Part shown: piece after piece, positions 267 to 56,707 of the stretch
Numbering within the stretch: position 1 is the first letter of the stretch
Layout of the letters: each line of letters begins with the position of its first letter
NCBI GenBank assembly: GCA_009392915.1
Contig: CP045477.1
Span: forward strand, 576,001-640,000
Length of the DNA: 64,000 nucleotides
Direction of reading: 5' to 3'
From: Candidatus Forterrea multitransposorum CG_2015-17_Forterrea_25_41
GTDB taxonomy: Archaea > Iainarchaeota > Iainarchaeia > Iainarchaeales > CSSED10-239
Notes under the pieces: model-generated
The model's database searches: none
What the model was told of the DNA's origin: nothing
Seen by the model: the letters and a program-made list of their open reading frames with translations, nothing else
Program-made: the position numbers and the translations under genes

Positions 267-1043
267 TTATTCTCTTTTTGCAGTTAATGTTTCATTACGT
301 GCAGGCATTATGTAAACAAAATAATCTCCCTCTGAAACTTTATCTCCAGTAGATTTTTCAATCCAATAAACAGTAGAGTCATCTTCTGATTGACTTAAAA
401 AACTTATAGATCCGTGAACCACATCACCTGTTTGATATTCTCCAGCTCCATTAAGAATAGGTTGAGAGATTCCAGTATCATTTTCTAAAGTTAAAGTATA
501 AGTTTCTGGCTCAGAAGATTCTGCTTGAAAAATTGCAGTAACTGATTTATTTTGAGTCATTGTAACGTCACAATTTATAGCAGCAGTATCACAATTTCCA
601 GTCCATCCTTGAAAAGTATTTCCTTCAGATGCATTTGCATTTAAAGTAACTGAAGTTCCTGAAGAATAATTTTGAGAACAATCAGTTCCACAATTAATAC
701 CTACTGGATTTGAAGTTACAGTTCCATTTCCAGAAACATTAACAGTTAATGTATAATTTTCAGGATCTGGTTCATCTGGTTCATCTGGTTCATCTGGTTC
801 AGGATCTTCTCCTCCAGGATTAGGATTAACATTATCTATTTCTTCAACTTGAGAAGAATCATTTAAATCTTCAATAAACCCATCAACTGTTGAATCTATT
901 CCTTCATTAATTTTGTCAGATTGACTTACTTTCTCATTTGAAAAATTAATAAAGGTTGTTGCAAGAACAATTGTACCTAAGACTAAAACACCAACTATAA
1001 TTACCATTTCTAAAGAAACTTGAGCTTTTTTATTTTGAATCAT
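267..1043 (-). CDS. Pilin-like surface protein with a class III (type IV pilin-like) signal peptide, a divergent InlB B-repeat (Ig-like) domain and a PEPDEPDEPD linker
   Basis: The N-terminus MIQNKKAQVSLEMVIIVGVLVLGTIVLA is a pilin-type signal (K-A-Q-V-S-L-E, QxSxE/DUF361-like, followed by a hydrophobic helix). It contains a GxGxVTSNPxGINCGxxCSxxYxxGTSVTLxAxxxxGxxFxGW unit typical of archaeal InlB-type repeats. Confidence 0.6.
   Translation of the reverse strand: MIQNKKAQVSLEMVIIVGVLVLGTIVLATTFINFSNEKVSQSDKINEGIDSTVDGFIEDLNDSSQVEEIDNVNPNPGGEDPEPDEPDEPDEPDPENYTLTVNVSGNGTVTSNPVGINCGTDCSQNYSSGTSVTLNANASEGNTFQGWTGNCDTAAINCDVTMTQNKSVTAIFQAESSEPETYTLTLENDTGISQPILNGAGEYQTGDVVHGSISFLSQSEDDSTVYWIEKSTGDKVSEGDYFVYIMPARNETLTAKRE
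764..806. repeat. Perfect 9-bp tandem repeat (atctggttc, about 4.5 copies) encoding the (EPD)n linker inside the pilin-like gene
   Basis: Seen directly in the sequence: ggatctggttcatctggttcatctggttcatctggttcagg. Confidence 0.8.
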
Positions 1044-1072
1044 ATTTATTCTTATTTTATATTTTTATAATA

Positions 1073-3265
1073 TTATTCTAAGCCACCATCAGTAATAGTC
1101 CAATTATAATTATTAATTAATATATTTTTTGCATCAACTGCAGAACTATCATAATTAACTGCTGTTGCACCTAATGTAACATTACTTTTTAAATTAGTTA
1201 AATTTGACCATCTAATTAAAATATTAGAATAATTTACAGTAGATAATGCATAATCAAACATATGAGCCATATCAGTTACATTTGAAACATCCCATGCACT
1301 AATATCTTGATCAAAACAAATATCAGAAATACTAAAGAAACATTGAAACATTCTGTTCATATTTGTAACATTTGAAACATCCCACATACTTATATTTTGA
1401 TTAAATGAATAATTATTATAAAACATAGAAGACATATCAGTTACATTTGAAACATCCCAATTATTCAATGGTTGATTAAATCTAGTACATCTAAACATTG
1501 CAGCCATATTAGTTACATTTGAAACATCCCAATTATTTATAGAAGTATTAGTCCATGAAAATACACCATTATTTGGAGGACTACTTACACTACAATTTTG
1601 ATAACCACTAAAAGTTCCTGCTAAATTTGTAATTCCGTTTAAATCAGGAACATCAGTTGCAGTTACAACTAAATTTGTAGCTCCAGAGAAATAATATCCA
1701 CTATTTCCAAATTTTAAATTACCCCATTGACTAATTTCAGTTAATTTTAATTTATCTCCAGAATTATTAAACCTAAAACCTTCAATAAAACCTGTTATGA
1801 TTACATCATATATCCCAGAACTTGAATATGTGTGAGTTTTATCAGGATCACTATAACTTGTAACCTCTGATGTAGTTCCATCTCCCCAATAAACTTTAAA
1901 ATTATAATTATTACTATAAAGAGAAGCAGAATCTAAAGGTAATGTAATTTGATTTGCATTTGAAGAACCAGTACTAATTTTTGTAGTATCCCATTTAGAT
2001 ATAAATGCATCTGAAGTAGGTATAAAATTTGCAGTTAAATTCACATTACTTGAAGGCATTGTATAACTAAATGAAGGATCTGTACTTACTACAGTACCAT
2101 TTTGATCAATCCAATTTACATAAGAAAATTCAGCAATAGAAGAGACAGATATATTTGCAACATCTCCAGGATTATAATTTCCTGCACCATTTAAACTAAT
2201 ATTTACTGAATCTGGATTTTCAATTAAATTTAAATTATAAGCAACAGGCAAACTAAAAGTTGCAGTTACATTTTTAACTTCAGTCATAGAAACAGAACAA
2301 CTAATTTGAGGTCCAGAACAATCCCCAGACCATCCTTCAAAAACATATCCTGAAACTGGAGTTGCATTTAATTGAACAGATTGTTGATCAGGAAAAGTTG
2401 CAGAACAGTTTGTTTGAGATTCTAAACAATTAATTCCAGAAGGATAAGTTTCAACAGTTCCTCCAATTGTTTTAGTTAAATTTAAAGTATAACTGTTTGG
2501 AAGATTAAAAGTTGCAGTTACATTTCTTGCTTGAGTCATGGAAACTGTACAAGTAAGATTAGTTCCTGAACAAGCACCTGACCATCCACCAAAACTATGA
2601 CCAGTAACAGGATTTGCAGTTAAAGTAACTGAAGTGCCTGAAGAATAATTTTCAGAACAATTAGTTCCACAATTAATACCAGAAGGATTTGAAGTCACAG
2701 TTCCATTTCCCGCACCACTTAAAGATACATTTAAAGTATAAGTTGATGGAGCAGTTGATGAAAAATTTGCAGTTAAAGAAGTATTTGAATTTAAATTAAA
2801 AGTATATGGATTTGTGGAAAGTGAACCTGTTGGAGTTGTCCAATTATTAAAAGTATAACCTGAAAGAGCAGTTGCAGTTGCAGTAACTGAAGTTCCACAA
2901 CTAAAAGTTCCAGCTCCTGAAACAGTACCACCTGCTGGAGGGTTTGAAGATAAAGTTAAAACACAATTACTACCAACACCTGAAATTGGTTCATAATCTT
3001 CAGGATTTGTTAAATCTTTAATAAAACCATCAATTGTTGAATTTGTAGCAGCATCAATTTCTCCTGCTTGATCTACTTTTTCATTTGTAAATCCAATTAA
3101 AATAGTTGCTAAAATAACAGCACCTAAAATCAAAACACCAATAATAATTATCATCTCTAAAGAGACTTGAGCTTTTTTACTTTTATTCATATCTTTATCC
3201 ACTTTTTTTACTTTTTTAGATTTTATTATTTTTTTAGATTTAATTTTTTTAACTTCTTTTTTCAT
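1073..3265 (-). CDS. Large pilin-like surface protein with a class III signal peptide, three InlB-type B-repeat (Ig-like) domains and a C-terminal array of DUF285/BspA-type 26-residue repeats. The true start is probably the internal Met at about 3190
   Basis: An internal MNKSKKAQVSLEMIIIIGVLILGAVILA matches the N-termini of the two neighbouring genes. It has the repeated unit GTVTSNPSGINCGTNCSENYSSGTSVTLTANP...GWSGxCSG. C-terminal repeats of the form WDVSNVTxMxxMF(x)FNQ match the Mycoplasma-type DUF285 leucine-rich surface repeat. Confidence 0.6.
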   Translation of the reverse strand: MKKEVKKIKSKKIIKSKKVKKVDKDMNKSKKAQVSLEMIIIIGVLILGAVILATILIGFTNEKVDQAGEIDAATNSTIDGFIKDLTNPEDYEPISGVGSNCVLTLSSNPPAGGTVSGAGTFSCGTSVTATATALSGYTFNNWTTPTGSLSTNPYTFNLNSNTSLTANFSSTAPSTYTLNVSLSGAGNGTVTSNPSGINCGTNCSENYSSGTSVTLTANPVTGHSFGGWSGACSGTNLTCTVSMTQARNVTATFNLPNSYTLNLTKTIGGTVETYPSGINCLESQTNCSATFPDQQSVQLNATPVSGYVFEGWSGDCSGPQISCSVSMTEVKNVTATFSLPVAYNLNLIENPDSVNISLNGAGNYNPGDVANISVSSIAEFSYVNWIDQNGTVVSTDPSFSYTMPSSNVNLTANFIPTSDAFISKWDTTKISTGSSNANQITLPLDSASLYSNNYNFKVYWGDGTTSEVTSYSDPDKTHTYSSSGIYDVIITGFIEGFRFNNSGDKLKLTEISQWGNLKFGNSGYYFSGATNLVVTATDVPDLNGITNLAGTFSGYQNCSVSSPPNNGVFSWTNTSINNWDVSNVTNMAAMFRCTRFNQPLNNWDVSNVTDMSSMFYNNYSFNQNISMWDVSNVTNMNRMFQCFFSISDICFDQDISAWDVSNVTDMAHMFDYALSTVNYSNILIRWSNLTNLKSNVTLGATAVNYDSSAVDAKNILINNYNWTITDGGLE
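1270..1535. repeat. Nucleotide-level tandem array with four or more copies of an acatttgaaacatccca core spaced about 72-90 bp apart. It encodes the WDVSNVT...MF 26-residue repeats
   Basis: The core occurs at about 1277, 1367, 1443 and 1515. Confidence 0.7.
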
Positions 3266-3279
3266 AAATATCTTTTCTC

Positions 3280-3663
3280 TTAATTAAAATTTGCTGTAAT
3301 ACCAGTATTAAAATTTAAATCAAAATAGAATATTTCAGTTTTGCTCATAATAGCTCCAGAAGAATCTTTCCAGTTTAAGAAACTATGACCTGTAGCAGGA
3401 ACAGCTTCTACTCTTACTTGAGTTCCACAAGCAAAACTACCATCTCCTTTAACAGTGCCAGCATCTTGAGGATTTACTGAAATTACTAGATTACAAATAA
3501 AGTTATCAACAATTTCATCTGTTTGTTTATTAATTGCATTAGATTGATCTGCTTTTGAAGAAGACATATTAATAACAATTGTTGCAAGAATAATTGTCCC
3601 TAAAACTAAAACACCAACGATAATCATCATTTCTAAAGAAACTTGAGCTTTTTTATTTATCAT
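3280..3663 (-). CDS. Small pilin-like protein (class III signal peptide plus one Ig-like B-repeat)
   Basis: The N-terminus MINKKAQVSLEMMIIVGVLVLGTIILA matches the downstream paralogs. The C-terminus has a CGTxVxVxAxPxxGxxFxxW B-repeat unit. Confidence 0.6.
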   Translation of the reverse strand: MINKKAQVSLEMMIIVGVLVLGTIILATIVINMSSSKADQSNAINKQTDEIVDNFICNLVISVNPQDAGTVKGDGSFACGTQVRVEAVPATGHSFLNWKDSSGAIMSKTEIFYFDLNFNTGITANFN

Positions 3664-26436: not shown

Positions 26437-27918
26437 ATGGCTGAAAAGTTTGATCCATTTTCATCAGGAAGCACAAATTATTATAATCCAACTTCTGAAA
26501 AGAAAAAAAGTAATGGACTTGTAACATTTATACTTGTGATAATATTAATTGGACTTGGAATTTATTATGGTTCAAACTATTTATTTCTAAATAAAGTAGA
26601 TGTAACTTTTAATATTAAGAACACAGAAGGAGAAACTATTCCTGCAAACATACAAATTTCAAAAAGTCCTATGTTTACAGATACAGTTCTTAATTTACAA
26701 AATGGAACTACAGGAGAATTGAAGAAAGGTAGCTATTATTATCAGATACAAGCAACAGGATATAAGTTATATAAATCAAGTACAGAAAAAGAATTTAAAG
26801 AAACATTTAATGAAGACTTTGAACTTGAAAAAAATATTAGTCTAAAATTAGAAAAAATTACTTTTCCAGAAAAAGTTTTTAAAAACCAAATGGCAATTCT
26901 TTCAATTGAAGTTATAAATACTTCAGAAAAAGAAATATATACTCCATCAAATATCATTGTAGAAGGTGATATTGAAGAATGGAATTTTGAATATGTTGAT
27001 AATTATCAAGAAGTAATATCTGTTGAAGATATAGTTATTCCACCAAAACAAAGAATGAATATAAATTTAAGATATATTGTGGACGATACTGGAGATAAAG
27101 AAAATGATATTAAGGTAAGAATTAAATATAAATCAGATTCTAAAAAAACTAGTTTTGAAATCATAGAAATTCCAGAAATCACAATAAAAGCAGATATTGA
27201 AAAAACAATTGAAAGTGGAAGTAATAGTAATTTTACAATAAATATTGGAAATTCTAAGAATAGCAGTCCTATTTCAGACTTAAAAATAGCACTTGAAATT
27301 GAAAGTGAAGAAAATGAAACTGTAGAAGAATGGTTTAATTATGATAAAGGGAACATTGTAATCCCTGCTAAAAGAAATACAACTTTAAGTCTTTCAGTTT
27401 CAATACCTCAATATGCAAAAAGTGATACACTTAATGGAAATTTAATTTTTTCAAGTTCTGCATTTGATGAAAATAAAGTTATTCCAATAAAAATTACAAT
27501 TGAAGAACCAAGCATTGATTTTGATACAAAATTAAGTACAAGTGAAACAGAAATTAATTATGATGTAAATAATAACACTACTGATAAAAAATATATTACT
27601 TTAACTTTAGATAATAAAAGTTCAATTGATATAGAAATTGTAAACATATCTATTCTTAATTTAGATCCTGACAAAAAAGATTGTAATAACTACATATATA
27701 TTTCAGAAAACTCACTTCCAGATAAAAGAGTTATTAAAAACACAAAACCAGAAATACCAATTACAATATTTGCAAAAGATCCTTCATTAATTGGAGATCC
27801 AATAAATAACACCAGGATTTGTGGAATAAATGTAGAATACAAACATCCTTTTAGAATAGAAGAAACAATTAATATTTCTAAAAATATTATAATAAATATT
27901 GAAGAAAAAACATCATAA
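26437..27918 (+). CDS. N-terminally anchored extracellular protein (hypothetical)
   Basis: It has the TM helix LVTFILVIILIGLGIYYG followed by a beta-rich, polar sequence. Confidence 0.4.
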   Translation: MAEKFDPFSSGSTNYYNPTSEKKKSNGLVTFILVIILIGLGIYYGSNYLFLNKVDVTFNIKNTEGETIPANIQISKSPMFTDTVLNLQNGTTGELKKGSYYYQIQATGYKLYKSSTEKEFKETFNEDFELEKNISLKLEKITFPEKVFKNQMAILSIEVINTSEKEIYTPSNIIVEGDIEEWNFEYVDNYQEVISVEDIVIPPKQRMNINLRYIVDDTGDKENDIKVRIKYKSDSKKTSFEIIEIPEITIKADIEKTIESGSNSNFTINIGNSKNSSPISDLKIALEIESEENETVEEWFNYDKGNIVIPAKRNTTLSLSVSIPQYAKSDTLNGNLIFSSSAFDENKVIPIKITIEEPSIDFDTKLSTSETEINYDVNNNTTDKKYITLTLDNKSSIDIEIVNISILNLDPDKKDCNNYIYISENSLPDKRVIKNTKPEIPITIFAKDPSLIGDPINNTRICGINVEYKHPFRIEETINISKNIIINIEEKTS

Positions 27919-31024: not shown

Positions 31025-31396
31025 ATGATTAAATCTGTAGAAGCTGTTATTGCTGTAATGATTCTTTTTTTATTCATAATAACATTATTTTCAAGCTATA
31101 CAAAAACAGAAACTAGAGAAAACTTAATGATTGAAAAAAGTTCAGAAATATTTTTAATCAATGCACAAAATAAAGAATTTAGAGATTATATACAAGAAAA
31201 TAAAGGTCAAATAATATATAATGAATTATATGGTTATATAGATAGTAATTATTCAATAAAAATATGTGATTTTTTAGAAGAAAATGAAAACTGTGCTGAT
31301 TTTGGAGATACAGTTCCTGATAAAAAAAGTTTAAGCTCTTTTAATTATTATTTTTATGATATTAATAAAACTTTAAATATAATAGTGTGGTCTTAA
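31025..31396 (+). CDS. Pilin-like protein (class III signal peptide)
   Basis: The N-terminus MIKSVEAVIAVMILFLFIITLFS is a short polar head plus hydrophobic helix typical of archaeal pilins. Confidence 0.4.
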   Translation: MIKSVEAVIAVMILFLFIITLFSSYTKTETRENLMIEKSSEIFLINAQNKEFRDYIQENKGQIIYNELYGYIDSNYSIKICDFLEENENCADFGDTVPDKKSLSSFNYYFYDINKTLNIIVWS

Positions 31397-31399
31397 AAA

Positions 31400-31858
31400 A
31401 TGAAAGAAAAAGGATTTACATACATAATAATTGTTGTTTTTATTATGATATTTGTAACTATGCTTTTTTTAATCTCAAAAAACATAAACTATTCAAATAA
31501 AATAAAACATTTAGTATCAAACTATAAAACTGAAATCAACTATCTTTCAGAAAATAACTTAATAGATGTAAATAGTTTAGATGAGTTTAATATAAATTTT
31601 AAAGAATTTATAAAATCAAATAACTATAATAGTAAAGCTTGTGGAATATATTTTGATGGTAATAAATACATTCTAAGTAATTATCTTGATGCAAATTATA
31701 CTCTGATACAAGAAAATCAAACTATTGAAATATTAGCAGAAAGTGTTTCAGAAGATATCATATTTGGAAATTGTGAAATGGATATTTCTTTAGAAAATTC
31801 ACTTTCTTTTTATATAGAAATTTATAATGATTCTGAGAAAAGTATATATAAACAATAA
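31400..31858 (+). CDS. Pilin-like protein (class III signal peptide, KG/F cleavage site)
   Basis: The N-terminus MKEKGFTYIIIVVFIMIFVTMLF fits a prepilin peptidase site after KG. Confidence 0.45.
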   Translation: MKEKGFTYIIIVVFIMIFVTMLFLISKNINYSNKIKHLVSNYKTEINYLSENNLIDVNSLDEFNINFKEFIKSNNYNSKACGIYFDGNKYILSNYLDANYTLIQENQTIEILAESVSEDIIFGNCEMDISLENSLSFYIEIYNDSEKSIYKQ

Positions 31859-32303: not shown

Positions 32304-34331
32304 ATGGTTTTTCCTTCTTTAAAAGTTACAAAAGAACTTACAGATAAGATAAGTAAACTTGAAGAAATAGAAAATACTAGAAGTGAAGATGAAGAAAAAA
32401 TCATAAATCAATTTTTTAAAAAAGAAATATCTCAAAAACAATTAATTTCTCTATTAAGAGAGAAAAAAATACAATCTATTTCTAAAAAAACAGATATTAA
32501 GGCAGTACATGCACTTGTAGATTATAATAAAACTTTAGCAAAGTTATCAGAAAATCTACAACTACAAAAAATACCTATTTATAGTATTGAAAATAGATCT
32601 ACGTTTAAAAGAATTTTAAAAAACTTATTTACAAAGAAAACTAAAAAAATAAAACCAAAGAAAGTAGAAGTTAAAAAAGATATTGATACAAAAAAAGAAA
32701 CTGAAATTAAAAAAGACACAAAAATTGAAACCAAAAAAGAAAAGAAAGATACAAATATCTTTGATAGAATATTTAAGAAAAGAGAAGCATTAGTTACAAA
32801 AGTTGAAGAAAAACATGAAATCAAACCAACTTTTGAACCTCCAAAAGAACTTTTACCTGAAAACTATCAAGTCTTAATACATGGTTTTGCATATGCCTTT
32901 ATTAGAGAATCAGAAAATGAAAGAATATATGTTGTTGCAGAACCAGAACTTACAGAAGAAGAAGAAAGAATTTTAAAAGAAACTAGAGAATCACTTATTA
33001 ATAAAATATCACTTGCAGATCTTACTGATGAGTCTCAAATGTATACTTTAGTTGAAAAAATATTTACAAGAAATAAAATAAAACTTGAAAAAGAACAAAA
33101 AGATAAAATTGTTTATTATATTATAAGACAAGTAAGTGGACTTGATAAAATAGAACCACTTATGCATGATCCATTAATTGAAGATATTGAGTGTGATGGT
33201 ATAGGGATACCAATCTTCATTGTTCATAGAAAATATGGACACATTGTAACAAATATTGTTCTAGATACAGAAAATGAACTACAACAATTTATTATAAAAA
33301 TGGCACACCTTTGTAAAAGTTATGTTTCATATGCATCTCCACTTTTAGATGCAATTTTACCAGATGGATCTCGTGTAAATGCAACATTAACTTCAAATGT
33401 TTCAACAAGAGGACCAACTTTTACAATCAGAAAGTTCCCTCAAAAACCATTAACAACAATTGATTTAATTAACTCTGAAACAATCACTCCAGAAATTGTA
33501 TCATATCTTTGGACATTACTTGAATTTAAAAAGAACATGATATTAATTGGACCAACAGCTGGTGGAAAAACAACACTTCTAAATGTAATTTCTTCATTTA
33601 TACCAGAAGCACAAAGAGTAGTATCAATTGAAGATACAAGAGAAATTAATCTTTTACTTAACAACTGGATTCCACAGATTACAAGAAGTGGTTTTGGACC
33701 TCCTGATCAAAATGGAAAAAGATATGGTGAAGTTAACATGAATGATCTTTTAAAAGAATCATTCAGACAAAGACCAGATTACTTAATTATCGGTGAAGTA
33801 AGAGGAGAAGAAATGGCTTTAATGTTCCAGGGTATGGCATCTGGACACTGTTCTCTATCAACAGTACACTCTAAAAGTGTAGAAGCATTAATTACAAGAA
33901 TTACAACTCCTCCAATCTCTTTAGATCCTTCACTTATAACAAGTCTTGATATTGTAATTGTAACAGGATTTACTGGTGTTGGAGAAGAAGGAAAGAGAGA
34001 AATTAAAGAAATTGATGAAATTAAAGGTTATAATAGTAAAGATAAGAAAGTAGAATATAATCCAATATATAAATCAATAGATAAATTTAAAGAAAAAAGT
34101 GCAACTTCACAAAGTGATCTTTTCCATAAAGAAACAGCTTTAGTATACAATAGTGATGTTTTAAAAGAAATATGTACAGAACATAATATTTCTAAAAAGA
34201 AAATGACAGATATAATAATGGCAAGAACTAAATTTATTGAAGCACTTACTAAAAACCCACCAAAAGATTACGTAGAATTTAATAAACTACTTAAAAATTA
34301 TAAAAGAAAAGAAGATTTTACTGAAAATTAA
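32304..34331 (+). CDS. Type IV pilus/archaellum-family assembly ATPase (PilB/FlaI/TadA-like secretion NTPase)
   Basis: It has Walker A LIGPTAGGKTTLLN, an Asp box and Walker B ...RPDYLIIGEVRG, and the His box ...GHCSLSTVHS. An N-terminal K-rich extension is present. Confidence 0.75.
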   Translation: MVFPSLKVTKELTDKISKLEEIENTRSEDEEKIINQFFKKEISQKQLISLLREKKIQSISKKTDIKAVHALVDYNKTLAKLSENLQLQKIPIYSIENRSTFKRILKNLFTKKTKKIKPKKVEVKKDIDTKKETEIKKDTKIETKKEKKDTNIFDRIFKKREALVTKVEEKHEIKPTFEPPKELLPENYQVLIHGFAYAFIRESENERIYVVAEPELTEEEERILKETRESLINKISLADLTDESQMYTLVEKIFTRNKIKLEKEQKDKIVYYIIRQVSGLDKIEPLMHDPLIEDIECDGIGIPIFIVHRKYGHIVTNIVLDTENELQQFIIKMAHLCKSYVSYASPLLDAILPDGSRVNATLTSNVSTRGPTFTIRKFPQKPLTTIDLINSETITPEIVSYLWTLLEFKKNMILIGPTAGGKTTLLNVISSFIPEAQRVVSIEDTREINLLLNNWIPQITRSGFGPPDQNGKRYGEVNMNDLLKESFRQRPDYLIIGEVRGEEMALMFQGMASGHCSLSTVHSKSVEALITRITTPPISLDPSLITSLDIVIVTGFTGVGEEGKREIKEIDEIKGYNSKDKKVEYNPIYKSIDKFKEKSATSQSDLFHKETALVYNSDVLKEICTEHNISKKKMTDIIMARTKFIEALTKNPPKDYVEFNKLLKNYKRKEDFTEN

Positions 34332-35704
34332 AAAGGATCATCATAAGATAAAAGGCCGTCTTTTTGGGTTTTTTTAGTATAATTTTGTTTTTGTGGTTTT
34401 TTTTTCTTTTTTATAATTATTAAAAATATAATTAAAATTATTATTATTACAGAAATTACAATATAATAAAAAACACTATTTTGTTCAACTTCTTCTTCAA
34501 TAAAACCAGAATCAATAATTGCTTTAGATTTAGACTTTAAAATTGAAATTTTATCAATAGCTTGTGAATATTGAGCTTTTGAAACTAAATCATTATATTC
34601 ATTATATGTTCTAAAAAGAGCATCAACTTCTGATTGTTCCTTCCAATAAGGTTTGTATTCATCGTTTAAAATTGTAGTGATAGCATGCTCTAAATTGTTA
34701 TAATTTGTAAAAGAAGCATCATAACTAGTCATCAAGTCCTTTAATTTAACAGACTCCATCCTAAGTTTCAAGTTATCAATAAATATACTTACCTTTTCAT
34801 CACCTTTTAAATCTAAATATAGTTTAGAATAGAAAGAACTTGTTGAAGAAAGGCTTTCATAAACATAATTAATATTTGAATTAAGGCTTGAAGGAGGAGA
34901 AACTAAGTTTACAAGCCCAGAAATTTCATTTGCTGGAATATTATCTTCAGCTACAATTTTTGTAACCAATTGTTCTGATTCTTGAATATATTCTAAAGAA
35001 GCTTGAGATAATTTATCATAACCTTTAAAAGAAGAATCAAAAGATTTTAAAAGACTAGATGTATCTTTACAATCTGGAGAAGATAAAAATGAATTTTGAG
35101 AATTTAGAAGTGAAGTTAAACTTTCTTTTAGATCTTCAAGATAAACTATTAGATTATTTATATGATTAATTGTTATTGTTATTTGAGAATTAAGTTCAAC
35201 AGAATAATTCTTTTCTAAAAGACCATTTAATTGTGCTTTCTTTGAATTAAGAGAAGTAATTATTGAATTAATTCTGTCAATTAATTGAGAAGATAAATAA
35301 TTATTAGGATTTGAATTTTTTAAAGATTTTAAAAGATATTCAGTTTTGATTAAATTAACATTAAAAGAATCAGTTTCACTTAAATAAACTTGAGAAAGCT
35401 CATTTGAGATTGGAACAAATAAAACAGATTCTCCTAAAGAATTTACAATAGGTATTACAAAATATTCTTCATCTTCACAACTTATCTTTGGTTGTGTAAA
35501 AGTATCAATCATATCATTTTCAGAAAGATACTCTTTTGAAATATCTTGAGCTCCAAATAAAGATAAAGCAAAAAGGTTTGAAGAAAATAAAACAATCACT
35601 AAAAATATTAATAAAATCTTTTTCATAAACATCAATTTTTTTAAACTATTATTATTCATCTCTAATAGCTCCATTATTAAAAACTTTATAGAAAATAAAA
35701 ACAT
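34328..35704 (-). CDS. Bitopic membrane/coiled-coil protein (hypothetical)
   Basis: It has an N-terminal signal/TM, a long Ser/Leu-rich coiled region and a C-terminal TM followed by a KKKKK tail. Confidence 0.35.
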   Translation of the reverse strand: MFLFSIKFLIMELLEMNNNSLKKLMFMKKILLIFLVIVLFSSNLFALSLFGAQDISKEYLSENDMIDTFTQPKISCEDEEYFVIPIVNSLGESVLFVPISNELSQVYLSETDSFNVNLIKTEYLLKSLKNSNPNNYLSSQLIDRINSIITSLNSKKAQLNGLLEKNYSVELNSQITITINHINNLIVYLEDLKESLTSLLNSQNSFLSSPDCKDTSSLLKSFDSSFKGYDKLSQASLEYIQESEQLVTKIVAEDNIPANEISGLVNLVSPPSSLNSNINYVYESLSSTSSFYSKLYLDLKGDEKVSIFIDNLKLRMESVKLKDLMTSYDASFTNYNNLEHAITTILNDEYKPYWKEQSEVDALFRTYNEYNDLVSKAQYSQAIDKISILKSKSKAIIDSGFIEEEVEQNSVFYYIVISVIIIILIIFLIIIKKKKKPQKQNYTKKTQKDGLLSYDDPF

Positions 35705-36629
35705 ATAAAAGACCTATAAGAGAAAAGGCAATTGAAAAATATATCTGCGCCATTGAAGCAATTAAAATACCAATGAAAAGAGCAAAGAATTTATTTACAA
35801 CAACCATTAAAGGAATACTTGAAATTGAATCTAAAACTTGATTTTTAATATCATTAGTATTTAAATTTGCATAAAGTCTATCAAAATCTTCAGTACTTGT
35901 TTTAGCACTACTGTTTTCTTTAATATTTTCTATAAAGTCAATATAGTTATAGACTACAGGATCTTTTAATTTTTGTAACTCTTTATATTCTTCTGAATCT
36001 ATTATAAAATTTACAACTGAAGAAGTACTTGCTTTACTTATACTGTAAGAAGTACCAAGCCAATTACCAATATCATCACCTACAAAAACTTCAACCATAC
36101 CCATTTGCATTTTTTGAGAATAACTTGCTTGATTTGGTAAGATTACAAGAAAGATTACTAAAAATAAAGTTAAAGATAAAAGAATACTTATCTTTGAATT
36201 TGCATAGTTTGAAAGAGAGTTAAGATGATCTCTTTCTTTAAATTTATTATATGTTAGAATAGATAAAAGTAAATGAGAAGCTAAATAAAATAAAACAAAT
36301 AACCAAAAATTTGCAGAAAATTTAAATATTAAAAAAGAAATTATAAAACCTAAAGTTATTCCTAAAAAAACTTCTAAAAGATCTAAATTTTTTTCTTTTC
36401 TAACAGATAAAGCAATACAGATTGCAGAAGTTATTGGAAATAATAAAAGTAAAAATAAAAAATCTAATGTTAAAAAAGTATTAACAATATCAGATAAATT
36501 AAAAACAATTAAAGAAGTTAGAGAAATACCTGATGCTTTATAAAAAAACATCCACATTATTATTGAAAAAGCAATTAAAAATATTTTTAAAATACCTTTT
36601 TTTTCAAAAACTTCAGTATAACTCATCAA
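35652..36629 (-). CDS. Polytopic membrane protein (possible TadC/FlaJ-like pilus platform component)
   Basis: It has at least six hydrophobic helices and sits beside the pilus ATPase. No motif was confirmed. Confidence 0.3.
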   Translation of the reverse strand: MMSYTEVFEKKGILKIFLIAFSIIMWMFFYKASGISLTSLIVFNLSDIVNTFLTLDFLFLLLLFPITSAICIALSVRKEKNLDLLEVFLGITLGFIISFLIFKFSANFWLFVLFYLASHLLLSILTYNKFKERDHLNSLSNYANSKISILLSLTLFLVIFLVILPNQASYSQKMQMGMVEVFVGDDIGNWLGTSYSISKASTSSVVNFIIDSEEYKELQKLKDPVVYNYIDFIENIKENSSAKTSTEDFDRLYANLNTNDIKNQVLDSISSIPLMVVVNKFFALFIGILIASMAQIYFSIAFSLIGLLYVFIFYKVFNNGAIRDE

Positions 36630-52859: not shown

Positions 52860-53891
52860 TTAAAAGATCCTATCAAAACCATTTATTTCAAAAACATAAA
52901 TTAATAAATTATAAGAATTAGCATAATTTGCATACCCTAAAAAAGAAAAAAGAGAAGAATTAAAATTAATTAAAGAAATTTTTTTAGAATTTAATAAAAG
53001 ATTATTAAGTTTTTGTCTTTTTATAAATCTCTTAACATTTGATTTTCTTAGTTTTACTTTAGTTGGGTAAATTTTATAACCTAAAAAATCAACCCCTTTA
53101 TCTACTAAATTAATATAAGTTTTGTTTTTAGGAATTGTAAGTAACAAATTATTTTTTAAAAATAATTTAATTTTTCTTCTGAAAATACTTAACTCTTGTT
53201 TAGAATTTGAAAATATTAAAAAATCATCAACATACCTATAATAGTGTTTGATTTTTAAAGTATGCTTAATATATTGATCAAGCTCATTTAAATAGATATT
53301 TGCAAAAAGTTGAGAAGTTAAATTACCAATAGGAATTCCTTTTTTATTATTTAAAAACGAAAAAGAATAACTATCTATTATTTTATATATTATAACCAAT
53401 AATTGCTTGTCTTTAATTCTTTTTTTTATAATATATTTTAAAACCTCTTTTTCAATAGAAGGAAAATATTTTTTAACGTCTTGTTTTAAGTAATATTTAG
53501 GAGATTTTTTAGATTGAACTAATTTTTTTATTTCTAAAAAACCTTTAAAAGTACCTTTTCCTTTTCTACATGCAAAAGAATTATTTATAAAAGTTTTATC
53601 AAAGATAGGCTCAATAATATTTATAATTGCATGTTGAACAACGACATCTCTAAAACAAGGAGCACTAATAATTCTTTCTTTAGGTTCATATACCTTAAAA
53701 TTTCTATATGGAGAAAAATTAAAATTACCAGAAATTAATTCTTCTTGTATTAAAAATAATTCTTTTTCAAGATTTTGAGTAAATTTTAAAATATATTTCT
53801 TATTAGGATTTGATTTTCTGGCACGTTTATATGCATTATAAATGTTTTTAAAAGAAGTAAATTCTTCCCAAAGATTATTATATGATTTCAT
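52860..53891 (-). CDS. DGR reverse transcriptase
   Basis: It has the RT motifs IISAPCFRDVVVQHA (motif 1/2), ...YFPSI... (motif 3), PIGNLTSQLFANIYL (motif 4 in the DGR-specific [I/L]GxxxSQ form rather than QGxxxSP), and YYRYVDDFLIFS (motif 5 YxDD). It is 343 aa with no maturase or endonuclease domain. Confidence 0.85.
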   Translation of the reverse strand: MKSYNNLWEEFTSFKNIYNAYKRARKSNPNKKYILKFTQNLEKELFLIQEELISGNFNFSPYRNFKVYEPKERIISAPCFRDVVVQHAIINIIEPIFDKTFINNSFACRKGKGTFKGFLEIKKLVQSKKSPKYYLKQDVKKYFPSIEKEVLKYIIKKRIKDKQLLVIIYKIIDSYSFSFLNNKKGIPIGNLTSQLFANIYLNELDQYIKHTLKIKHYYRYVDDFLIFSNSKQELSIFRRKIKLFLKNNLLLTIPKNKTYINLVDKGVDFLGYKIYPTKVKLRKSNVKRFIKRQKLNNLLLNSKKISLINFNSSLFSFLGYANYANSYNLLIYVFEINGFDRIF

Positions 53892-54148: not shown

Positions 54149-54269
54149 AAACTACTGAACACAGCGCAGGCCGATGTTGTTGTTCCGGTTCCCAGGAGTA
54201 TTGTTCAAGTTCAAGTTCAAGACCCCTGCATTAGTTCCATTGTTCCAGTTACCACCGCGCAGGAAAGAA
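54149..54269 (-). repeat. DGR template repeat (TR), 121 bp and non-coding
   Basis: It is a near copy of 55343-55463 but carries AAC/AAT codons in the minus orientation where the genic copy has mixed bases. It lies between the avd stop and the RT start. It is GC-rich against the AT-rich background. Confidence 0.85.
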
Positions 54270-54345: not shown

Positions 54346-54675
54346 TTATAAATTATGCTTTAAAAGCCCCCCAATTAATTTACCTAAATCATTTAGTTTT
54401 TTAGAAATAACTTCATATTTTTTAAAAGAAATAATTTTTAGATCAAAAGAGAGCCTCACATATATTTTTAAAAGTTCTAAATCAGTATCAATTTGATTTA
54501 AAGTATTAATTTTATGTTTTGAAAAAAGAATAGTATTAGATAATAAAGAAATAGTAGTTTTTTTCAAATCTTCTCCTAAAATATATTTGTCAGATTTAGG
54601 AAATTTTTTAATTTCAGGATAAATATAAAGTAAAAAGTTATATGTTTCTTTATATAACTTTAAATCAAATAACAT
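54346..54675 (-). CDS. avd: DGR accessory variability determinant (Avd-like four-helix-bundle protein)
   Basis: LYKETYNFLLYIYPEIKKFPKSDKYILGEDLKKTTISLLSNTILFSK matches the Avd/four-helix-bundle family (the Bordetella phage Avd has ...YLYPIAQSIPRKHG...). It is 109 aa and sits between the target and the TR. Confidence 0.7.
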   Translation of the reverse strand: MLFDLKLYKETYNFLLYIYPEIKKFPKSDKYILGEDLKKTTISLLSNTILFSKHKINTLNQIDTDLELLKIYVRLSFDLKIISFKKYEVISKKLNDLGKLIGGLLKHNL

Positions 54676-54685
54676 ATTATAAACA

Positions 54686-55093
54686 CTATTTTTTATTTTC
54701 TTCTATTTTTTTTATAAGTCCATTAAAATATTTAATTTTTTCTTCAAATTGATTATAAAAAAAAAGAATTTTATCTTTAGATAAATCTTTATTAATTTCA
54801 CTTAATATAAGTAAATTTGATTGAGTTGTAGAAACACAATCTCTTGAATAAGAATAAAGTAATGATTTTTCATTAGAATGATATTTATTATATCCTTTTG
54901 ATAAAAAAGAAAGAATATTTATTAAATTTGAAATAGTTTCTTGAAAAATAAAATTATCATTTATAGATGATTTATTTTCTTCTAAAAATTTATAAGTATT
55001 AATAACTAAAGGAAAGAGTTCTTTGTAAACCCCAAAATTTAAAATTCCTCTTTCTATATTTACTAAACTCATAACAACCATATTTTTGTCCAA
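54686..55093 (-). CDS. Hypothetical protein (second small accessory ORF within the DGR cassette)
   Basis: 135-aa ORF co-oriented between the target gene and avd. No motif was recognised. Confidence 0.35.
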   Translation of the reverse strand: MDKNMVVMSLVNIERGILNFGVYKELFPLVINTYKFLEENKSSINDNFIFQETISNLINILSFLSKGYNKYHSNEKSLLYSYSRDCVSTTQSNLLILSEINKDLSKDKILFFYNQFEEKIKYFNGLIKKIEENKK

Positions 55094-55342
55094 TATATAT
55101 TGTGATTTATTAAAACCACTTTAATTGAGTAGCAAATTTTTTTGTAAAAAACAAAAAAATTTGCAAAAGCAAAAAACATTTGCTTTCTCTTTTGCCAATT
55201 TATTTTTTTCTTTTTTCACTTTTATTTTTTATTTTTTTGCACAAACTCAATCTTGAAGCATTGTTTTTCGCGACGTTACCCGTCTTACCGTCTTGCCGTC
55301 TCACCCGTCAAAATACAATATTCTCGAAATACATTTTTTCAA

Positions 55343-55463
55343 AAACTACTGAACACAGCGCAGGCCGACGACGCTGCCCCGGCCCCCAGGAGTAAAGTTC
55401 AAGCGCAAGCCCAAGACCCCCGCATTAGTTCCACTGCCCCAGCCACCACCGCGCAGGAAAGAA
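55343..55463 (-). repeat. DGR variable repeat (VR), covering the last 40 codons and stop of the target gene plus 3 nt
   Basis: It is a 121-bp, indel-free copy of the TR. It carries 20 substitutions, all at positions where the TR has A on the minus strand. Confidence 0.85.
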
Positions 55464-56707
55464 TATACAGTAGTAGAAGTATCTCCAAAATCACTATAAG
55501 TGTAAATTCTACCAACACCATTATCTGCTGCATTATAATTATTACTTGTAAGTAAAAATAAATCTTTATACTCTAAAGTGGTATTACCTAAATTATCAGA
55601 AGAAATGTATTGGGCTTCTCCACCACCTTTTGAATAATCAAAATAATCAAAACCAGTAGTAAAGTTACTATCATCAGCATTGTTAAAACCATCAGGTTGG
55701 TCTTTTCTTTGGATAGTGTCACTTGTCCATTGCCAAACATTACCAGCTAAGTCCCAAATTACTTCACCGTTTGTTAAAGTTAAGGTTCTTTTTGTAGTGC
55801 CAGAAAGTTCATCAAAACCTTCCATAGCACCAGAAGAAGAAGAATTACCACGTGGAAGATAACCTTCTCCAACAACTCCAGTTGACCAGTTTGAAGGTAC
55901 TTGTTCAATGTTTCTTGCAATGGTCATCCATTCGTCATTTGTTATTAAATGTCCACCTACTGCAGCACAAGCTGCAATAGCTTCGGTTTGGGAAATTCTT
56001 GCTATTGGAGAACCTTCTGGAGTTGATACTAAAGTGCCTGGAGTAGGACATAATTCATAACTATAAGTATTATAGGTTAAAGAACCAGTATTACAATCTG
56101 GATAATCAGCTACAAGGTTTCCTTTACCATCTCCATTTGCATCCATTTTCATTTCATATTTTGAAACACAAAAACCACCACGCTCATTCATGGTTCCATA
56201 TAAATGGTTTCCTGGAACTGGAACATAGCCTTCTGGACAAGAAAGAGGAGTTTTTACGGTTTGAAAAAGATCAGGTTTAGTTATCATTTGAGAATTGTCT
56301 AAATATAAAACTAAATCTAAAGAGTCACCTAAAATACCATGATCAAGAGTAGCAGATTGATTGGAAAGAATAGTGACAGGAGGTTCTAAAGGATTAATGT
56401 TTGAATTGCCTAATAAACTATAACCGGTAATGGTAATAGAAGTATAAGGAGAACCATAAGGGGGTTTATACTCTAGAAGAGAACGACCATTGATAGAAGA
56501 TTTAATATTTAAATAAAAGCCAGTTTCTGATTCTGTATAAACTTCAATACTTGAAGCTTTAGAAAAAGAATCATTGGTAAAGCCTTTACCCCAAGAAAGA
56601 ATAATACCAATAATAGCAACAGAGACAACTATTAAAAGAATGGTGGCTATCAAAGGAGAAATACCTTTTTGAAATCTAAAACGCTGAAAAATATATTTGA
56701 AAAACAT
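55346..56707 (-). CDS. DGR target protein: a pilin-like N-terminus (class III signal peptide) plus an FGE-sulfatase/C-type-lectin-fold domain with the variable region at its C-terminus
   Basis: The N-terminus FQKGISPLIATILLIVVSVAI matches the archaeal pilin/archaellin G-x-SP-[LV]-IAT-[VI]-LLI motif. The C-terminal half (GGFCVSKYEMK ... LRGGGWGSGTNAGVLGLRLNFTPGGRGSVVGLRCVQ) matches the FGE-sulfatase fold ending in R-C-V. The last 40 codons overlap the VR. Confidence 0.8.
   Translation of the reverse strand: MFFKYIFQRFRFQKGISPLIATILLIVVSVAIIGIILSWGKGFTNDSFSKASSIEVYTESETGFYLNIKSSINGRSLLEYKPPYGSPYTSITITGYSLLGNSNINPLEPPVTILSNQSATLDHGILGDSLDLVLYLDNSQMITKPDLFQTVKTPLSCPEGYVPVPGNHLYGTMNERGGFCVSKYEMKMDANGDGKGNLVADYPDCNTGSLTYNTYSYELCPTPGTLVSTPEGSPIARISQTEAIAACAAVGGHLITNDEWMTIARNIEQVPSNWSTGVVGEGYLPRGNSSSSGAMEGFDELSGTTKRTLTLTNGEVIWDLAGNVWQWTSDTIQRKDQPDGFNNADDSNFTTGFDYFDYSKGGGEAQYISSDNLGNTTLEYKDLFLLTSNNYNAADNGVGRIYTYSDFGDTSTTVYSFLRGGGWGSGTNAGVLGLRLNFTPGGRGSVVGLRCVQ

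Follow-up and report, generated by a model that had tools for sequence, protein, structure and literature searches.

A target of an archaeal diversity-generating retroelement that is probably a modular type IV pilin with a C-type-lectin head

Diversity-generating retroelements (DGRs) occur in unusual abundance in DPANN archaea and in bacteria belonging to the candidate phyla radiation (CPR); their targets in these organisms have been assumed to mediate attachment. Targets whose fold is that of C-type lectins (CLec) are already known from DPANN archaea (PMC4372165, PMC5006420, PMC7443923) and attachment roles have already been proposed for DPANN and CPR targets; the largest DGR survey describes these proteins as being without a recognisable membrane or conserved domain and leaves their cellular location open (PMC8144416). 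The present study concerns a stretch of 64,000 nucleotides (the window; all coordinates refer to it) from Candidatus Forterrea multitransposorum CG_2015-17_Forterrea_25_41 (assembly GCA_009392915.1, contig CP045477.1, positions 576,001 to 640,000), in which a complete DGR, with its reverse transcriptase (RT), Avd protein and template repeat (TR), acts on the open reading frame (ORF) at 55346..56707 of the minus strand as its target. In its organism of origin and in its FGE-type CLec fold the encoded protein is like the DPANN and CPR targets that Roux et al. 2021 (clades 5 and 2) and Paul et al. 2015/2017 have listed, and it differs from them in that a pilin module is recognised in it. There are no entries for pilin, pilus, PF07790 or PF07963 in the supplements of the DPANN/CPR DGR-target survey. 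A GspG-type pilin domain is listed in one 2024 survey among the rare domains that hold a variable repeat (VR) (PMC11661182), and no paper in the literature searched, the coverage of which did not extend to Paul et al. 2017, combines 'diversity-generating retroelement' with 'prepilin'. The pilin part of such targets was not reported in earlier DGR surveys.

Several described systems resemble one or the other half of this protein. Pilus tip adhesins diversified by a DGR are known for the type V pili of Bacteroides (bioRxiv 10.1101/2024.11.15.621889). These also combine a cellular DGR, a C-terminal CLec head on a pilin-type N-terminal domain and an Avd-like accessory protein, and one group of the type V variable proteins resembles TaqVP. 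However, type V pili, which belong to Bacteroidota, are lipoprotein-derived polymers formed by strand exchange and bear no relation to type IV pili, which are not mentioned in the text of that paper, whereas in the window protein the carrier is a type IV pilin module of the archaeal kind that begins with a class III leader, and its source is a DPANN-type archaeon. TaqVP (5vf4), TvpA (2y3c) and Mtd (1yu0) are solved CLec-fold DGR variable proteins, to which the window protein adds a pilin module of 152 residues. Mtd forms the tip of a phage tail fibre and TvpA is a lipoprotein; to our knowledge none of the three has been described with a pilin module.

A small pilin module followed by a C-terminal ligand-binding module, with the carrier reused for many different modules, is also the plan of the bacterial modular pilins, such as PilB (vWA module) and PilC (ConA-like lectin module) of Streptococcus sanguinis, for which a location at the pilus tip has been proposed (PMC8179133). 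They differ from the window protein in their N-methyl leader (G/F..E, the slash marking the cleavage site here and below) and in being defined by IPR012902, and none has been reported as diversified by a DGR. Archaea do not occur in the text of that survey (PMC8179133), and the family described here is an archaeal counterpart of the modular pilins that lies outside the published IPR012902-defined set (Raynaud et al. 2021). Archaeal adhesive pilins of the Pilin_N/PilA kind (Pyrobaculum calidifontis 8fk7, S. solfataricus 8fjs, Aap 8q30, Iho670 5kyh) share with the window protein the type of leader, a helix of the form …SP[LIV]IAT[IV]LL… and the combination of helix and β-sandwich, but are subunits of 130-300 aa with no appended lectin module and no link to a DGR. 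The bindosome proteins of Sulfolobus are different again in that only the signal has been borrowed; they have no pilin β-domain and no CLec fold, and they are not diversified.

The target ORF is present exactly as the initial annotation had drawn it, encoding 453 aa that begin with MFFKYIFQRFRFQKGISPLIATILLIVVSVAIIGI and finish with GLRCVQ. The product is identical to NCBI NCP71862.1 and others, where it carries the name 'SUMF1/EgtB/PvdO family nonheme iron enzyme [archaeon]'; the same enzyme name is found in NCBI for P0121, P0002, P0129 and the protein of locus L009. An AlphaFold (AF2) model computed with 67 homologs shows two modules (mean predicted local distance difference test, pLDDT, 89.3; predicted template modelling score 0.84). 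On the evidence given below we consider the protein probably to be a modular archaeal type IV pilin, composed of an N-terminal pilin module and a C-terminal ligand-binding module of C-type-lectin fold, the head of which is rewritten by the DGR. A pilin fused to an FGE-sulfatase or C-type-lectin domain had been suggested for this ORF from the beginning, and both halves of that architecture hold: neither the absence of a class III leader site nor a catalytically competent FGE was found when each was looked for.

Residues 1-152 constitute a complete archaeal type IV pilin module, consisting of a basic leader, a hydrophobic helix and a β-sandwich. The class III-type leader (aa 1-15, MFFKYIFQRFRFQKG; 56663..56707, minus strand) contains four basic residues and ends K-G, after which the hydrophobic stretch begins (MFFKYIFQRFRFQK-G / ISPLIATILLIVVSVAIIGIILSW), and cleavage by a prepilin peptidase is predicted to occur after G15. 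The helix (aa 16-51, 18-51 as modelled; 56555..56662, minus strand) is found in both models and opens with 24 uncharged hydrophobic residues, I16 to W39. No other part of the family's sequence is as well conserved, the mean column entropy here being 1.06 bits. The globular β-sandwich follows at aa 53-152 (56252..56551, minus strand), so that the module as a whole has the lollipop architecture of a long N-terminal α-helix and a β-rich globular domain.

A profile of residues 1-152 built from 24 homologs was compared with all sequences of the Protein Data Bank (PDB), and at E < 1 it matched nothing but filament subunits of archaea, either type IV pilins or flagellin-like proteins. The best of these was the Pyrobaculum calidifontis pilus (8fk7_A, E 4.6e-7), followed by 8rey_M (1.7e-3), 9myg_A (8.4e-3), Natrinema PilA2 (8gi2_A, 1.1e-2) and 8fj5_A (1.6e-2), and more weakly by 8fjs_A (0.1), the Iho670 core (3j1r_A, 0.16) and 8tib_A, a DUF973 family protein (0.57). 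Residue 1 of the deposited chains of 8rey_M (VSPIIATILLI…) and Iho670 aligns exactly to I16, the predicted mature N-terminus. The site itself, K14-G15/I16-S17-P18, is of the same form as those listed for characterised PibD substrates, which are processed at R-A/V-S, D-A/V-S and R-A/L-S (PMC4371748). The leader motif, for which members were picked out by a regular expression, is kept in at least 75 of the 120 closest homologs. In these 75 members position -2 is K or R without exception, a result that is largely forced as the expression permits only K, R, D or E; position -1 is A (37), S (30) or G (8), and positions +1 to +10 read [IVL][SE][PA]-L-I-A-T-I-L-L. The class III signal proposed by the initial annotation is thus upheld by the form of the site, its conservation in the family and the starts of the deposited chains.

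The second module (aa 153-453; 55349..56251, minus strand) has the C-type-lectin or FGE-type fold, contains six cysteines and lacks the FGE catalytic pair. An FGE-sulfatase-type C-terminus of about 290 aa had been claimed for it: the extent is matched by the model, in which the CLec fold occupies approximately residues 153-453 with the VR at the C-terminus, but in sequence the Pfam FGE-sulfatase match, although above its cutoff (3.6e-9), is confined to residues 229-351. The structure closest to the module, by a wide margin, is that of a DGR variable protein. The VR, which is modelled with a pLDDT of 94-98, aligns to the VRs of TvpA and TaqVP, and the segment of FGE that carries the cysteine pair (C-N-R-Y-R…) also aligns to the VR. 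No cysteine pair is present in this segment in either the VR or the TR peptide, the sole cysteine being the structural one of GLRC. The FGE active site has been lost from the target. As the segment that should supply the cysteine pair is the VR, and neither VR nor TR peptide has such a pair, the enzyme name used by NCBI is functionally misleading.

The claim that this gene is the target of a DGR was borne out by the repeat comparison, which gave a TR/VR pair of 121 nt. The VR (55343..55463, minus strand) comprises codons 416-453, the stop codon and 3 nt beyond it; the TR (54149..54269, minus strand) is located in the spacer between the genes for Avd and RT and encodes SFLRGGNWNNGTNAGVLNLNLNNTPGNRNNNIGLRCVQ followed by a stop. 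Read on the coding strand, the two repeats have 20 mismatches, every one of them at a TR adenine (16 A>G, 3 A>T and 1 A>C), and the chance of this, given 31 adenines in 121 positions, is 2.4e-15. The A>G share of these changes (16/20) exceeds that of some sister cassettes, for example L006 with changes to G (9), C (4) and T (5). When all adenines of the TR were replaced by N, the resulting pattern matched the window twice, at the TR and the VR, where no match was expected. A second VR in the window is rejected by the same search, and there is no remote target here.

Fifteen codons of the VR are able to change their amino acid, corresponding in the TR to 12 AAY (nine AAC and three AAT), two ACT and one ATC codon, which gives a theoretical repertoire of approximately 8e15 proteins. 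These are set in a fixed scaffold that can be written RGG-W..G..AG-L-L-L..P..R....G-L-R-C. Column entropy among 67 full-length homologs averages 3.15 bits for the variable codons and 1.15 bits for the scaffold codons of the VR. The VR is also a sharp island of high GC content, with 65% GC overall and 68% GC at third codon positions (GC3), compared with a GC3 of about 14% in the rest of the gene and 48% GC in the TR. Two ORFs of 71 and 100 aa, rich in Ala, Pro and Arg, lie on the plus strand at 55180-55555, antisense to the target over the VR region. The simplest explanation is that they are not genes but artefacts to which the GC island gives rise.

Comparison of near-identical proteins from different public assemblies provides a view of the variation that occurs in nature. 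The protein P0121, which is the window protein, and P0122 have a single difference, V446L, in a TR-adenine codon (1/18 such codons, 0/416 elsewhere). P0005, a paralog that is 80% identical to the window protein and has its own cassette elsewhere, differs from its variant P0127 at 10 of the 18 TR-adenine codons and at none of the 416 others (Fisher P = 7e-16). As the near-identical proteins of these pairs differ at TR-adenine codons only, the DGR appears, on this indirect evidence, to be active in nature, with mutagenic retrohoming ongoing. In a third pair, P0002 and P0131, the differences fall in 12/18 TR-adenine codons and 3/416 others.

The remaining parts of the DGR lie downstream of the target on the same strand. 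The RT of 343 aa (52860..53891, minus strand) matches Pfam RVT_1 (1.7e-23) and has the motifs IGNLTSQ and YVDD, the first of which conforms to the [IL]GxxxSQ motif that is diagnostic for the RTs of DGRs; the TR sits 258 nt upstream of its start. The Avd accessory protein of 109 aa (54346..54675, minus strand) is recognised by NCBIfam NF033474 DivGenRetAVD (5.8e-26, 90.8 bits against a cutoff of 80) and Pfam bAvd (2.1e-21). Between target and Avd there is a further conserved gene (54686..55093, minus strand) for a protein of about 128-135 aa that is predicted to be helical and probably starts at M8 (55072). The paralogous cassette L001 has an ORF 80% identical to it in the corresponding place, and the gene is also found in L006, L009, L011 and L014. 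It belongs to no Pfam or NCBIfam family and has no relative in the PDB. The possibility that it is a second Avd was rejected (hhalign probability 0.7%, no PDB relative), and in this archaeal lineage it may serve the DGR as an accessory factor that has so far escaped recognition.

The sequence beyond the VR was also considered. TR/VR identity runs through GGCCTGCGCTGTGTTCAGTAGTTT and then gives way to divergence, a boundary that was looked at for an initiation of mutagenic homing (IMH) element as in the Bordetella phage BPP-1. About 35 nt downstream of the VR stop there are four GACGG units (GACGGGTGA GACGGCAA GACGGTAA GACGGGTAA; 55269..55309, minus strand). This run is kept in the cassettes L001 and L006, and a different GC-rich repeat of the CTGGAC type is present at that place in L011 and L014. 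No hairpin or cruciform was recognised after the VR, there being no inverted repeat and the z-scores for DNA folding being -1.5, 0.3 and -0.9.

The composition of the gene and its surroundings speak to its origin. The window has a GC content of about 24%, and both modules of the target have the GC3 of about 14% that is found in the genome. The cassette is flanked by housekeeping genes, namely those for the α and β subunits of phenylalanyl-tRNA synthetase (PheRS), an MBL-fold protein, an RNase Z-like gene, Lon, PCNA and RFC, and no virion genes were found among these flanks. The host-like GC3 of both modules, together with the housekeeping flanks, speaks in favour of a resident cellular gene and against a viral or recently imported one. 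A recent horizontal gain of the lectin module by itself is rejected as well, for it leaves no compositional signal: only the TR and VR are GC-rich.

The pilin module is not peculiar to DGR targets. When 1.84 billion cluster representatives were searched exhaustively with its profile, 1,252 proteins matched at E ≤ 1e-3 and 197 at E ≤ 1e-10, and in the best 150 of the 1,252 matches, with lengths from 140 to 1,134 aa, the module was always situated at the extreme N-terminus. Matches to the whole module numbered 117: six standalone pilins of less than 200 aa, and 111 longer proteins, the largest of which has 1,134 aa. Behind the pilin module in 94 long members we found GLUG (19), ConA/LamG-like (16), Lcl_C/DUF1566 (11), CHB_HEX_C_1/Fn3_assoc (8), RCC1 propellers (6), PKD (4), DUF285 (3), Kelch (2) and other domains. 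The module is a widely used carrier of adhesion-type domains. Short pilins of 150-170 aa with the same helix also occur in the lineage, often in tandem.

An example of this reuse is seen at locus L003 (6515-11288), on a contig of 663,621 bp from the same genome as the target, where three tandem genes encode pilin-headed proteins of 494, 445 and 617 aa that share a near-identical N-terminus (…KRKAISPLIATILLVVVA…GKGFTN…). The middle gene, P0040, is a CLec paralog without a TR and is not diversified. The outer two, whose C-terminal parts have no assigned family, are paralogs of each other. That these 494- and 617-aa neighbours of P0040 might be homologs of the window ORFs beginning at 26437 and 27939, upstream of the secretion ATPase discussed below, was considered and rejected, BLASTP showing no relation.

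In species-representative genomes the full-length relatives of the target are restricted to metagenome-assembled genomes (MAGs) of archaea, assigned to Candidatus Iainarchaeum/'ainarchaeum', Woesearchaeota and unclassified archaea, and the nearest named relatives are MAGs of Candidatus Iainarchaeum/'ainarchaeum'. A short contig fragment of the archaeal paralog bears the label Candidatus Wolfebacteria, and a single locus that of 'uncultured Thermococci archaeon'; both labels are probably artefacts of binning or taxonomy. The archaeal pilin leader is present in 11 loci, in six of which an RT is found within the flank, and adenine-specific TR/VR pairs were confirmed in L001, L006, L009, L011 and L014. 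As no TR is within reach of P0040 or of the family members in L013, L018, L034, L045 and L052, these are probably fixed paralogs. No TR was found in L007 or L008 either. The first of these (L007 4500-14500, Candidatus Iainarchaeum MAG JBBISB010000001.1) has a tandem duplication of 6,351 bp with two identical pilin-CLec genes; the RT next to them is broken up into short ORFs, and neither an Avd nor a TR can be detected there. It looks like a decayed DGR cassette with a target that is now fixed, or an assembly artefact.

The CLec module alone is far more widespread than the full-length archaeal architecture. In 17 of 78 genome loci, mostly of CPR bacteria, it stands behind a bacterial type IV prepilin leader (…KGFTLLEILLVIA…; KGFTLLEILLV). 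One such gene, in a Saccharibacteria MAG (L019 6379-9415, CAZLAP010000048.1), has an RT, an Avd and a TR/VR pair adjacent to it, with 13 of the 15 mismatches at A. Several CPR genomes (among loci L021, L036, L037, L039 and others) contain three to six prepilin-CLec paralogs with VR-like C-termini, and in several genomes such paralogs have no RT within 10 kb and no TR in reach; these may be remote DGR targets. Another class III leader, K-G/Q-x-S-x-E, is found in a few of the archaeal members. The CLec head is consequently mounted on three kinds of leader: the archaeal Pilin_N type, the archaeal Q-x-S-x-E type and the bacterial N-methyl type.

Several features of the window bear on the machinery that might assemble such a protein. 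A FlaI/PilB-type secretion ATPase is encoded at 32304..34331 on the plus strand (Pfam T2SSE 1.4e-31; NCBIfam FlaI 3.1e-96 and BasE 2e-59, both below their equivalog cutoffs). It is a candidate type IV filament assembly ATPase, which may serve the target. Just upstream of it, at 31025-31858 (plus strand), are two small ORFs with N-terminal hydrophobic segments, one of which reads …KEKG/FTYIIIVVF…, and the large ORFs upstream of the ATPase (493, 610 and 325 aa) have single N-terminal transmembrane (TM) segments and belong to no known family. This region may represent a divergent type IV filament locus without a recognisable platform gene. Near the start of the window (267..3663, minus strand), three consecutive ORFs of 258, 730 and 127 aa have class III-type leaders of the form K-A/Q-V-S-L-E, to which InlB B-repeat (Flg_new_2), DUF285 and PKD-like domains are joined. 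They make up a second class of adhesin-like proteins with a pilin head in the genome, different from that of the target. Their leaders have Gln at +1 and Glu at +5, which is the form reported for EppA-type substrates. The initial annotation spoke of several other pilin operons in the window. That description is only partly right: it is matched by the three class III ORFs, the ATPase and the two small ORFs, but no platform protein or prepilin peptidase was recognised among the window ORFs scanned.

Taking the two modules and the DGR together, we propose the following sequence of events. The preprotein would be inserted into the membrane, where a prepilin peptidase of the PibD/FlaK type would remove the basic leader of 15 residues after G15. 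With the helix exposed from I16 onwards the protein could then enter a type IV pilus machinery, consisting of a FlaI/PilB-type ATPase and a platform protein, and be co-assembled with the short pilins that have the same helix. The lectin head would in this way be displayed outside the cell and, by analogy with the bacterial modular pilins, is likely to be at the tip of the filament or to belong to a minor subunit sparsely distributed along it. The DGR, comprising the RT, Avd, the extra protein of about 130 aa and the TR, would convert TR RNA into cDNA with errors at adenines, and the mutated cDNA would overwrite the last 38 codons of the gene, randomising 15 of them on the fixed scaffold. The lineage could by this means keep altering what its filament binds, whether host or partner cells, particles or glycans. 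The cell therefore probably carries a re-programmable adhesin.

A number of observations weigh against this reading. The target lies outside any pilus operon, with PheRS, MBL-fold protein and RNase Z-like genes as its neighbours, and the mature protein of about 438 aa would be three times the size of a typical archaeal pilin. Pilin scores computed from the single sequence are below threshold (Pilin_N, PF07790, 15.7 bits against 25.2; TIGR02537, 15.4 against 20; UpsA, 5e-5 over residues 13-51). Of 67 members of the family, 15 match Pilin_N at 0.01 or better. Neither the window nor 1.2 Mb of related loci yielded a prepilin peptidase or a platform protein in a search that covered selected window ORFs and three proteins with at least six predicted membrane segments by Pfam and NCBIfam, the smaller membrane ORFs of the window by motif check only, and all related loci by a scan for the A24 motif. 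The ORF with seven TM segments at 35652..36629 was considered as a prepilin peptidase and rejected, as it has no family and no GxGD motif.

Some of these observations would be accommodated if the leader were processed without a long pilus being formed, so that the diversified lectin acted as a surface receptor, either in a short bindosome-like or pseudopilus structure or anchored in the envelope in the manner of the sugar-binding proteins of Sulfolobus. Large non-pilin proteins with class III signals do exist in archaea, as in the Sulfolobus bindosome (PMC4371748), and this is itself a point against assembly into a filament. The target is also large and remote from any pilus operon, and the ATPase of the window matches the bindosome ATPase BasE as well, below its cutoff. 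However, the subunits of the bindosome are substrate-binding proteins with a borrowed signal, and the substrate-binding-protein fold is absent from the target, in which residues 1-152 are instead a whole pilin, helix and β-sandwich included, equivalent to the standalone pilins of about 150 aa in the same lineage. We regard such a mode of display as the main alternative, although an unlikely one. Less likely still, and in our view decidedly improbable, is that the leader is an uncleaved signal anchor of type II, its resemblance to a pilin being convergent and the lectin head being tethered to the membrane. The sub-threshold scores of the single sequence and the lack of a recognised peptidase in the window would agree with this, but a generic anchor would not be expected to keep [KR][ASG]/[IVL][SE]P-LIATILL across proteins that are 30-40% identical overall, nor to yield an E value of 4.6e-7 to solved archaeal pilins whose chains begin in exact register.

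It might also be supposed that the target is a receptor-binding protein of an integrated archaeal virus or prophage, which would diversify the host recognition of its virion in the manner of BPP-1. DGRs are known in archaeal viruses (PMC4372165), and the paralogous cassette L001 adjoins a transposase and a HicAB toxin-antitoxin pair. The housekeeping flanks of the window cassette without virion genes, a codon composition like that of the host, a pilin leader that is not a virion feature and the chromosomal contexts of the non-DGR paralogs leave this explanation very little probability. A catalytic FGE/EgtB-type enzyme, as implied by the NCBI name, the Pfam FGE-sulfatase match and weak NCBIfam matches to SenA and EgtB (1.7e-3 and 4.4e-3, far below cutoffs), can practically be dismissed in view of a cysteine-pair region that is a hypervariable VR lacking the pair and randomised by the DGR, a closest structure that is a DGR variable protein, and an N-terminal export or pilin module. 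Our preferred interpretation is accordingly that of a filament-displayed, modular type IV pilin with a diversified lectin head.

The pilin module is just under the Pfam threshold in the members scanned, and its recognition gives these DGR targets a concrete location and mechanism that can be tested, in which they would be displayed on a type IV filament. With it an extensive counterpart of the bacterial modular pilins comes to light in archaea, and the archaeal case would represent an independent solution beside the DGR-diversified tips of the type V pili of Bacteroides. With prepilin-CLec genes of CPR bacteria in mind, it is quite possible, and we suggest it tentatively, that DGR-diversified modular type IV pilins are a general attachment device of ultra-small prokaryotes, evolved convergently in DPANN archaea and CPR bacteria. 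If this is true, the device would be a pilus adhesin that can be programmed by a retroelement, and it would provide a cellular location for the seemingly domain-less DGR targets of the DPANN and CPR lineages.

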